From assembly GCA_012474735.1 (NCBI GenBank), contig GCA_012474735.1_4085.1: a stretch of 64,000 bases of DNA, one strand, 5' to 3'. Shown piece by piece: positions 14,264 through 14,423 of the stretch. The first letter of the stretch is position 1. Each line of letters opens with the position of its first letter. The notes under the pieces were generated by a model. It searched no databases and was not told the DNA's origin. It worked only from the letters and a program-made list of their open reading frames with translations. This stretch comes from a phage. Both the position numbers and the translations under genes were made by a program.

Positions 14264-14423
14264 AAAATCTCCTTCAGATTAGTACTGAATTTGTACAGAA
14301 TATTAGAACTGTATACAGCCTCTGTATCTGTATCCATAATCAAATCACCTTTGTTTAAATTACAAAAGTACTGATAACTGTGCTTAAAAGAATGTACTGA
14401 TATTAAAAAATCAAATTCCATCA
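14264..14423 (-). pseudogene. truncated duplicate of the 5' end of gene 13536..13892 (53-codon remnant)
   Basis: ~100 nt near-identical to 13795-13895; encodes MEFDFLISVHSFKHSYQYFCNLNKGDL then diverges and stops. Confidence 0.5.

Follow-up and report, generated by a model that had tools for sequence, protein, structure and literature searches.

We analyzed a 64,000-nucleotide stretch of phage DNA, hereafter the window (GenBank assembly GCA_012474735.1, contig GCA_012474735.1_4085.1), which is from an Asteriusvirus, i.e., a member of the 121Q/PBECO4 group of jumbo Escherichia coli phages with genomes of ~350 kb. At the locus under study, the 5′ end of a gene that we denote B is present twice, at the start of the intact gene and in a short chimeric open reading frame (ORF), B′. 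In the direction of transcription, the gene order is A-B′-C-B-D, with all five genes tightly packed on the minus strand. We refer to this arrangement as the long form, and to the arrangement A-B-D found in a number of relatives as the short form. The tail of B′ and gene C have counterparts in a related phage, A4, in which C lies between two genes denoted X and Y. The features of the locus, from upstream to downstream, are as follows.

14421..14798, minus strand: gene A (phrog_15629), the upstream neighbor, with an ORF extendable to 14939; it directly adjoins B in short-form phages.
14260..14421, minus strand: B′, a chimeric 53-codon ORF in which residues 1 to 27 of B are in frame with the last 26 residues of an X-type gene.
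14339..14423, minus strand: R1, the upstream repeat copy, extending from the TGA stop codon of A through the ATG and up to codon 27 of a B-type gene; it makes up the 5′ part of B′ and carries T33, T38 and G83 at its single-nucleotide polymorphisms (SNPs).
14339..14346, minus strand: left novel joint, an 8-nt microhomology, GATTTGAT, common to codons 26 to 28 of B (G allele) and to X.
14260..14338, minus strand: X-derived tail of B′, the 3′ end of an A4_364-type gene.
13892..14263, minus strand: gene C (123 aa, phrog_13866), an ectopic copy of the A4-type allele, missing from short-form relatives.
13888..13894, minus strand: right novel joint, a 7-nt microhomology, TGATGGA, which is both the overlap of C stop and Y start in A4 and the overlap of A stop and B start in the short form.
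13810..13894, minus strand: R2, the downstream repeat copy, extending from the TGA stop codon of C through the ATG and up to codon 27 of intact B.
13536..13892, minus strand: gene B (118 aa, phrog_15629), intact, its 5′ end being the part present in duplicate.
13180..13539, minus strand: gene D (119 aa, phrog_15629).

The families phrog_15629 (A, B and D) and phrog_13866 (C) are weakly related, and both are of unknown function. A Pfam scan of A, B′, C, B, D and one member of the neighboring F1 family yielded no domain, with a single subthreshold RINGv hit.

The two repeat copies are 85 nt long, identical at 82 of 85 positions (96.5%), and spaced by 529 nt from start to start (BLAST E-values for the pair, 5e-37 and 2e-38). 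A preliminary description of this DNA, made from the sequence alone, had reported a near-identical repeat of ~100 nt of the 5′ end of B, to be given up if identity fell below 80%. The repeat is real, but its limits are 14339-14423 and 13810-13894. The same description correctly identified a 53-codon ORF, whose translation from the ATG is MEFDFLISVHSFKHSYQYFCNLNKGDL followed by IMDTDTEAVYSSNILYKFSTNLKEIL, and placed it rightly one gene upstream of the intact copy, as C lies between B′ and B. Read on the coding strand, the repeat opens with TGATG, in which the TGA stop codon of the upstream gene overlaps the ATG, and continues with the first 27 codons of B. At either end, identity drops from 96% to background over a single base, and a BLAST search of the 85-mer against the whole 64-kb window returned no third copy. 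Only 85 of the 529 nt of the repeat period are duplicated; 444 nt separate the copies.

The five genes were located in 16 related loci. The locus is 100% identical to that of Escherichia phage SHEFM2K and 93 to 99.9% identical to those of other Asteriusvirus genomes. The long form was found at the sequence level in the window, SHEFM2K, G17, phAPEC6, ECO103 4-12-1, BF17, slurp01, CRJP21, 121Q and Turkey3, and by BLAST match also in EC22.5-2 and Sharanji. An assembly artefact is excluded, because the structure is seen in 10 independently sequenced genomes in addition to the two BLAST matches. The short form was found in PBECO4, E9.1, SD-15, EC.P1, WPEC3 and UE-S1, and in most other records covering 68 to 80% of the query. 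In it, A adjoins B via a TGATG overlap, as A joins B′ in the long form, and the two forms differ by exactly one 529-bp repeat period. As the earlier description had proposed, the fragment is a recombination scar, and these six relatives display the A-B-D state, devoid of the duplication.

Gene C has a narrow distribution. At an identity of at least 90% it occurs in 13 phage records, 12 of them long-form (with 121Q counted twice), the exception being A4. In 19 other records, only a distant paralog of the C0 type (see below) is present, 27 to 29% identical and located ~6 kb away. A search for further contexts of C in IMG/VR gave only 121Q itself and one partial relative at 38% identity, and JGI metagenome contigs gave no matches to C. 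Neither paralog arrays nor duplications nor this indel are mentioned in the Asteriusvirus genome papers on Sharanji (PMC11895373) and fEgEco12 (PMC13070987).

In phage A4, C (A4_365) is located between a full-length X gene of 192 codons (A4_364), with which it shares an ATGA overlap, and Y (A4_366). Positions 14180-14596 of the A4 locus (L017) match positions 14304-13885 of the window, i.e., the segment comprising the X tail and C, at 94.8% over 420 nt, and the A4_365 protein is 93.5% identical to that encoded by C in the window. In 121Q, the counterpart of B′ (gp366) has 74 codons, and its tail, with an extra 63 nt, extends the match to A4 further: after its B-derived part it reads IMDTDTEVVYSSNVLCKEFQNSKMLELLCIADCNILYKFSTNLKEIL, which matches the last 47 residues of the A4 X protein, IMDVDSAATYSSNVLCKEFQNSKILELLYIADCNILYKFCTHLKEIL. 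The window version of B′ corresponds to the 121Q version minus these 63 nt, which were lost in frame at a short repeat, TAAT(G/A)TTCTGT; relative to 121Q and A4, the site of loss lies at ~14302-14305 of the window (TAAT), and most genomes have the tail without the 21 codons. Thus, the part of B′ that had been described as diverging and then stopping is the in-frame C terminus of X. A tblastn search with X matched only A4 and the 121Q fragment.

The window also has its own, divergent version of the X-C-Y locus, at 7050..8345:

7743..8345, minus strand: X0, counterpart of A4 X.
7375..7737, minus strand: C0, counterpart of A4 C.
7050..7385, minus strand: Y0, counterpart of A4 Y.

By tblastn, A4_359-361 correspond to window positions 9784-8898, and A4_366-371 are collinear with 7376-4757 (A4_367-371 with 7006-4757). 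C and C0 are 28% identical and Y and Y0 41% (tblastn), and X and X0 align end to end, tail region included, at 26% identity (E-value 3e-9). As X0 aligns with X over its whole length, the tail of B′ represents the natural C terminus of an X-type gene. This protein-level synteny shows the X-C-Y position in A4 to be the native locus of C. In A4 itself, the equivalent of the A/B locus contains no insertion, C being present at the native locus only. The window thus holds both its own X0-C0-Y0 and an ectopic, A4-type segment made of the 3′ end of X and C.

The two novel joints were read by three-way comparisons, of B′ of the window, B of Turkey3 and X of A4 for the left joint, and of the A4 C/Y boundary, the recipient-type A/B boundary and the product for the right joint. 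At the left joint, B (G allele) reads AAAGGT GATTTGAT GCACAG, X reads CAACAG GATTTGAT TATGGAT and the product reads AAAGGT GATTTGAT TATGGAT. The 8-nt microhomology is in the same reading frame in B and X. At the right joint, the A4 C/Y boundary reads GAGTAC TGATGGA TTTAG, the recipient A/B boundary GAAGTG TGATGGA ATTTG and the product GAGTAC TGATGGA ATTTG. The flanks of both joints are unrelated between the partners. The repeat runs exactly from TGATGGA at the right joint to GATTTGAT at the left joint, and its 85 nt therefore equal the offset between the point of exit from B (nt ~81) and the point of re-entry, 4 nt before the B start. By a rough estimate, a microhomology of at least 7 nt has a probability of ~1e-3 at a random joint, and thus two such joints are not a matter of chance. 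The two microhomology motifs are not notably overrepresented on the coding strand (8 occurrences versus 4.4 expected, and 5 versus 2.2 expected), and these coding-strand counts gave no evidence of a dedicated recombination signal. As a separate observation, the boundary used as the right-hand joint is also where UE-S1 has A and B as a single fused ORF of 242 aa (L009 2036-2764; ...NHFNLGERVMEFDFLISV...), because an extra base before TGATG throws the A stop codon out of frame.

The structure of the joints bears on the origin that was first proposed for the repeat, namely, that unequal homologous crossing-over between array paralogs produced a tandem duplicate whose upstream B copy then decayed to a 53-codon stump. 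Genes A, B and D are indeed head-to-tail paralogs of phrog_15629 with stretches of 60 to 86% identity that could support misaligned pairing, and the end of B′ (...YKFSTNLKEIL) is vaguely similar to that of B (...YKFNLGIQE). However, the 444 nt between the repeats copy no neighbor; they match the X(3′)-C segment of A4, at a different locus, with 94.8% identity over 420 nt, and C is missing from the short forms. The tail of B′ is collinear with the C terminus of X over 47 residues in 121Q, and the one-base drop in identity at both ends of the repeat is unlike the gradual decay of a duplicated whole gene. Furthermore, the joints share only 8 and 7 nt, and the left one fuses codon 27/28 of B to approximately codon 146 of the 192 codons of X, positions that are not homologous. 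This origin is consequently highly improbable. Both hallmarks of such a tandem duplication are absent: the repeated unit as a whole is not a local copy (85 of 529 nt only), and the junction is not at homologous positions of paralogs within extended similarity.

The presence of an inserted gene between direct repeats, polymorphic for presence or absence among close relatives, might also evoke a mobile element, i.e., a transposon or a homing-endonuclease cassette that carried C and generated the 85-nt duplication as its target site duplication. We found no terminal inverted repeats at the ends of the insert, which encodes neither a transposase nor an integrase nor an endonuclease; its gene, C, specifies a 123-aa protein that belongs to the local paralog superfamily and has no Pfam hit. 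In addition, the insert carries a truncated piece of a neighboring gene, which is typical of illegitimate recombination. This explanation is hardly credible. To our knowledge, 85 nt far exceeds known target site duplications.

Instead, B′ and the 85-nt repeat are probably, and we say so with good confidence, the footprint of one ancestral, microhomology-mediated ectopic insertion into a short-form Asteriusvirus. The repeat, the indel polymorphism, the donor-type locus and the microhomologies are all visible in the sequenced genomes, as is the mosaic SNP pattern described below. In the proposed sequence of events, a short-form recipient (A-B-D) would have gained a segment of ~507 nt comprising the last 47 codons of X and the whole of C. 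Its source would be the native X-C-Y locus of an A4-like, coinfecting relative, ~6.3 kb further along the same transcription unit. An invading or nascent 3′ end would first copy A and B up to codon 27, then switch at GATTTGAT from codons 26 to 28 of B into X, in frame, and go on copying through C. A return switch at TGATGGA would join the C stop to the B start, 85 nt behind the exit point, and this re-entry behind the exit would leave two copies of an 85-nt stretch made up of the start of B and the stop codon ahead of it. Two successive illegitimate crossovers would be an alternative route to the same product. A later in-frame deletion of 63 nt would have cut the X tail from 47 to 26 codons, 121Q retaining the long version. 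The cassette would then have spread or been lost among lineages by homologous recombination via A, B and the 85-nt repeat. In the resulting arrangement, B′ would deliver ribosomes to C, which also keeps its own AAGGAG site in the tail. The template-switch mechanism, the coinfection, the direction of the single gain and loss events and the lack of function of B′ are inferences.

Several points weigh against this interpretation. None of the genomes preserves the true recipient and donor of the ancestral insertion, and A4 is 94.8% and not 100% identical over the transferred segment, which makes it a donor-type relative rather than the donor. The left microhomology amounts to 8 nt only with G at position 83 of the repeat; the A allele gives 5 + 2 nt. 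From sequence alone, template switching and two sequential illegitimate crossovers are inseparable. Lastly, neither the fusion nor the 63-nt deletion disrupted the frame of B′, and the ORF is open in 10/10 long-form genomes; this is only a coincidence of about 1 in 9 and leaves room for selection.

The distribution of alleles indicates a single origin followed by divergence. Both junctions are identical in 10/10 long-form genomes examined at the sequence level, while the ectopic C gene exists as two alleles, of 372 nt in the window type and 369 nt in the 121Q/slurp01 type, that are 13 nt plus one codon apart. Between the window and Turkey3, C is 100% identical, B 92% and A 88%, and each of three B allele types is found both with and without the cassette. 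The repeats differ at positions 33, 38 and 83 as follows:

Window R1: T/T/G.
Window R2: A/C/A.
SD-15 and PBECO4 (short form, single repeat): T/T/A.
WPEC3 (short form) and R2 of Turkey3: A/C/G.

These reciprocal SNPs imply that the long form of the window and the short form of the SD-15 type are related by one crossover between positions 38 and 83 of the repeat. In addition, R1 of Turkey3 is identical to the single repeat of EC.P1. Both observations show later homologous exchange inside and around the repeat. The SNP pattern is symmetric as to direction, and a crossover in the repeat could represent a deletion, a homologous import or a Campbell-type integration of a 529-bp circle. The Asteriusvirus group encodes its own RecA-type recombinase and exonucleases (PMC11895373).

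This pattern raises the question of polarity, as distinct from the origin of the repeat. The long form might be ancestral for the sampled phages, every short form then being a secondary deletion between the 85-nt repeats. The single repeat of SD-15 and PBECO4 (T33, T38, A83) is exactly the chimera, R1 at its 5′ side and R2 at its 3′ side, that a crossover between R1 and R2 of the window would generate, B of SD-15 is identical to that of the window except for two SNPs in the repeat (99.44%), and recombination between 85-nt direct repeats with a 529-nt spacing is to be expected in a recombinase-encoding phage. The SNPs nevertheless fit the reverse reaction equally well, namely, import or integration of the cassette through a crossover within that 45-nt interval. 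Moreover, the most divergent alleles (UE-S1, WPEC3 and EC.P1) are among the short forms, the short forms outnumber the long ones (19 records with only the distant C0 paralog versus 12 long-form records, including 121Q twice), and A4 has C at its native locus with no insertion at the equivalent of A/B. We therefore regard an ancestral long form as rather unlikely.

A more speculative reading, which we consider quite unlikely, is that the 85-nt repeats make C a self-excising and reintegrating cassette. Recombination of R1 with R2 would free a 529-bp circle containing one repeat, the X tail and C, and during coinfection this circle could integrate, through one crossover at the 5′ end of B, into any short-form Asteriusvirus. 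If true, such a cassette would explain both the presence of C in all three B allele backgrounds and the reciprocally chimeric SNPs, and it would be an analogue, made of coding sequence, of the mini-circles of T4-type phages discussed below. The population would then maintain, as a polymorphism subject to gain and loss, a second allele (28% identical) of an accessory gene that evolves rapidly, and the always-open B′ could also serve as a translated leader for C.

A further sign of mosaicism was observed next to the locus. The window and SHEFM2K are 100% identical over 13000-15200 but only 95.5% over 14940-15600, where E9.1 is 99.7% identical to the window, which indicates a likely mosaic breakpoint just upstream of gene A, at ~15200-15600.

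As for B′ itself, it is most likely a remnant without function. Having taken over the start context of B, it is nonetheless probably translated. B′ overlaps the end of A at its start codon (TGATG) and the beginning of C at its stop codon (ATGA), and PHROG 15629 matches it over residues 1 to 39 only. A ribosome-binding site for C, AAGGAG, is located inside the tail (14269-14274), 5 nt ahead of the C ATG, which accounts for retention of at least the part of the tail that bears it. In 121Q and CRJP21, R1 contains a clustered patch of 12 differences within ~25 nt, most of them amino acid-changing (HTVKGAPQYLC versus HSFKHSYQYFC). The patch equals no sampled B allele, and it may stem from either an unsampled allele or relaxed constraint.

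It is very doubtful that selection has maintained B′, whether for a small protein or for a translated leader through which translation of A would be coupled to that of C. The ORF is open and its two overlaps, with A upstream and with C downstream, are conserved in the 10 long-form genomes, the frame survived the fusion and the later deletion, and the ratio of nonsynonymous to synonymous polymorphism (pN/pS) of the tail is 0.40 rather than 1. However, to keep the frame twice is only the coincidence of ~1/9 mentioned above, and coupling is not needed for C, because it has a strong AAGGAG site of its own. The pN/pS value is 0.40 for the tail and for C alike (with few sites), and it is below 1 because half of the A4-121Q branch represents a functional X gene. 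Between A4 and 121Q, the tail has diverged ~2.4-fold more than C (18/141 versus 19/369 nt; Fisher p = 0.006), which is the only significant difference between the two. Most genomes have lost 21 codons of the tail, and the differences in the 121Q/CRJP21 patch mostly change amino acids. Finally, the 27 residues of B correspond to approximately the first two β-strands in a structure model of the distant paralog C aligned with B, and so they are not predicted to form the B fold.

B′ is annotated as a “hypothetical protein” in at least 10 deposited genomes (e.g., M2K_0104, G17_00559 and PBI_121Q_366), and its identification as a B::X chimeric remnant corrects this annotation. Another label at the locus concerns gene A, whose counterpart in phAPEC6 (L011 1722-2099) is annotated “amidohydrolase 3”. 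The Pfam scan of the window ortholog revealed no such domain, and the label looks spurious.

The event can be compared with known systems. A contiguous segment of a donor locus, a short microhomology at each joint and a duplication equal to the offset between exit and re-entry are the features of a templated insertion, and all three are found here. In the model of Hendrix and Hatfull, illegitimate, microhomology-mediated novel joints build phage mosaics (PMC2327257). As in those mosaics, nonhomologous sequences meet at a small number of bases that they share, frequently where genes abut, an entire gene has been gained relative to close relatives, and spread occurs by homologous recombination in the flanks. 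In contrast with them, the donor type, the recipient type and the product are all extant in one genus here, the donor is an allelic version of a locus only ~6 kb away, and an 85-nt target duplication is combined with an in-frame chimeric ORF, which is rarely documented. The geometry also resembles fork stalling and template switching/microhomology-mediated break-induced replication (FoSTeS/MMBIR), with a contiguous copy of a distant sequence, 7- to 8-nt microhomologies at two junctions and a re-entry behind the exit that yields a direct duplication. Those processes were defined in eukaryotic and bacterial chromosomes, whereas the replicative nature of the event would here be that of a jumbo phage that encodes a recombinase.

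In T4-type phages, modular shuffling and mini-circle formation are mediated by PeSLs, early-promoter/stem-loop cassettes (Arbiol et al. 2010, PMC2839356). The likeness lies in accessory genes of unknown function in a plastic region, in short direct repeats that delimit exactly an indel between sister phages, and in the expected excision, through recombination of one repeat with the other, of a small circle (529 bp here) that could reintegrate elsewhere by one crossover. PeSLs, however, are preexisting, multicopy intergenic cassettes made of a promoter and a terminator (PMC2839356), whereas the repeat described here is the 5′ end of a coding gene, is present in two copies only, arose through the insertion and carries neither a promoter nor a terminator signal. 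A scan for sigma-70 promoters and terminators over 12500-16500 was at background (22 versus 21.3 expected) and found no minus-strand promoter-like or terminator-like site in 13892-14423, phage-specific promoters being outside its scope. C resembles a moron in that it separates A from B, two genes that most relatives have side by side. Unlike morons, it has no detected promoter or terminator, and its donor is a homologous phage locus rather than a foreign source; nor does its GC content set it apart as that of a moron would (35.2%, versus 30 to 36% for its neighbors and 34.7% for the window). The insertion is thus not a transposon footprint, a classical moron or a tandem duplication by unequal crossing-over. 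It is a well-documented case of the known class of illegitimate, microhomology-mediated joints, with a geometry similar to that of template-switch templated insertions.

The genes of the locus are part of a larger array. Thirty-four consecutive minus-strand ORFs (865-25832) of 84 to 215 aa, including A, B, C and D, share an acidic-x-[Y/F/L]-F-Q motif located about two-thirds into the protein, with variants such as EEYYFQ, EEEFFQ, DELFQ and similar. These ORFs form a very large paralog superfamily that extends across several PHROGs (9317, 15629, 13866 and others) and has no Pfam domain. The motif bears a superficial likeness to the tobacco etch virus protease site consensus, E-x-x-Y-x-Q; it is probably structural, as in the model of C it sits at the start of the first helix. 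The preliminary description had placed the scar within the F1 array, but the phrog_15629/13866 set adjoins the phrog_9317 array (10849-13170) and does not lie inside it. The F1-family (phrog_9317-like) ORFs at 10849-11301 and 11279-11767 adjoin each other with a 23-nt overlap. All members of that family begin with near-identical MSLQSAL... codons and represent one repeat family, and these conserved 5′ ends could be further recombination substrates in the array.

The recipient-type (A-B-D), donor-type (X-C-Y of A4) and product (A-B′-C-B-D) arrangements are all extant in sequenced relatives. Because the three states survive, each junction can be resolved with single-base precision, and the geometry accounts for the 85-nt duplication. 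The locus provides a well-resolved natural example of the movement of an accessory gene within jumbo-phage genomes, with no new type of element or mechanism. It also shows that one phage can stack two highly divergent alleles (28% identity) of one accessory gene, and this stacking would matter if the [D/E]-E-x-[Y/F]-F-Q paralog superfamily acts in host interaction.
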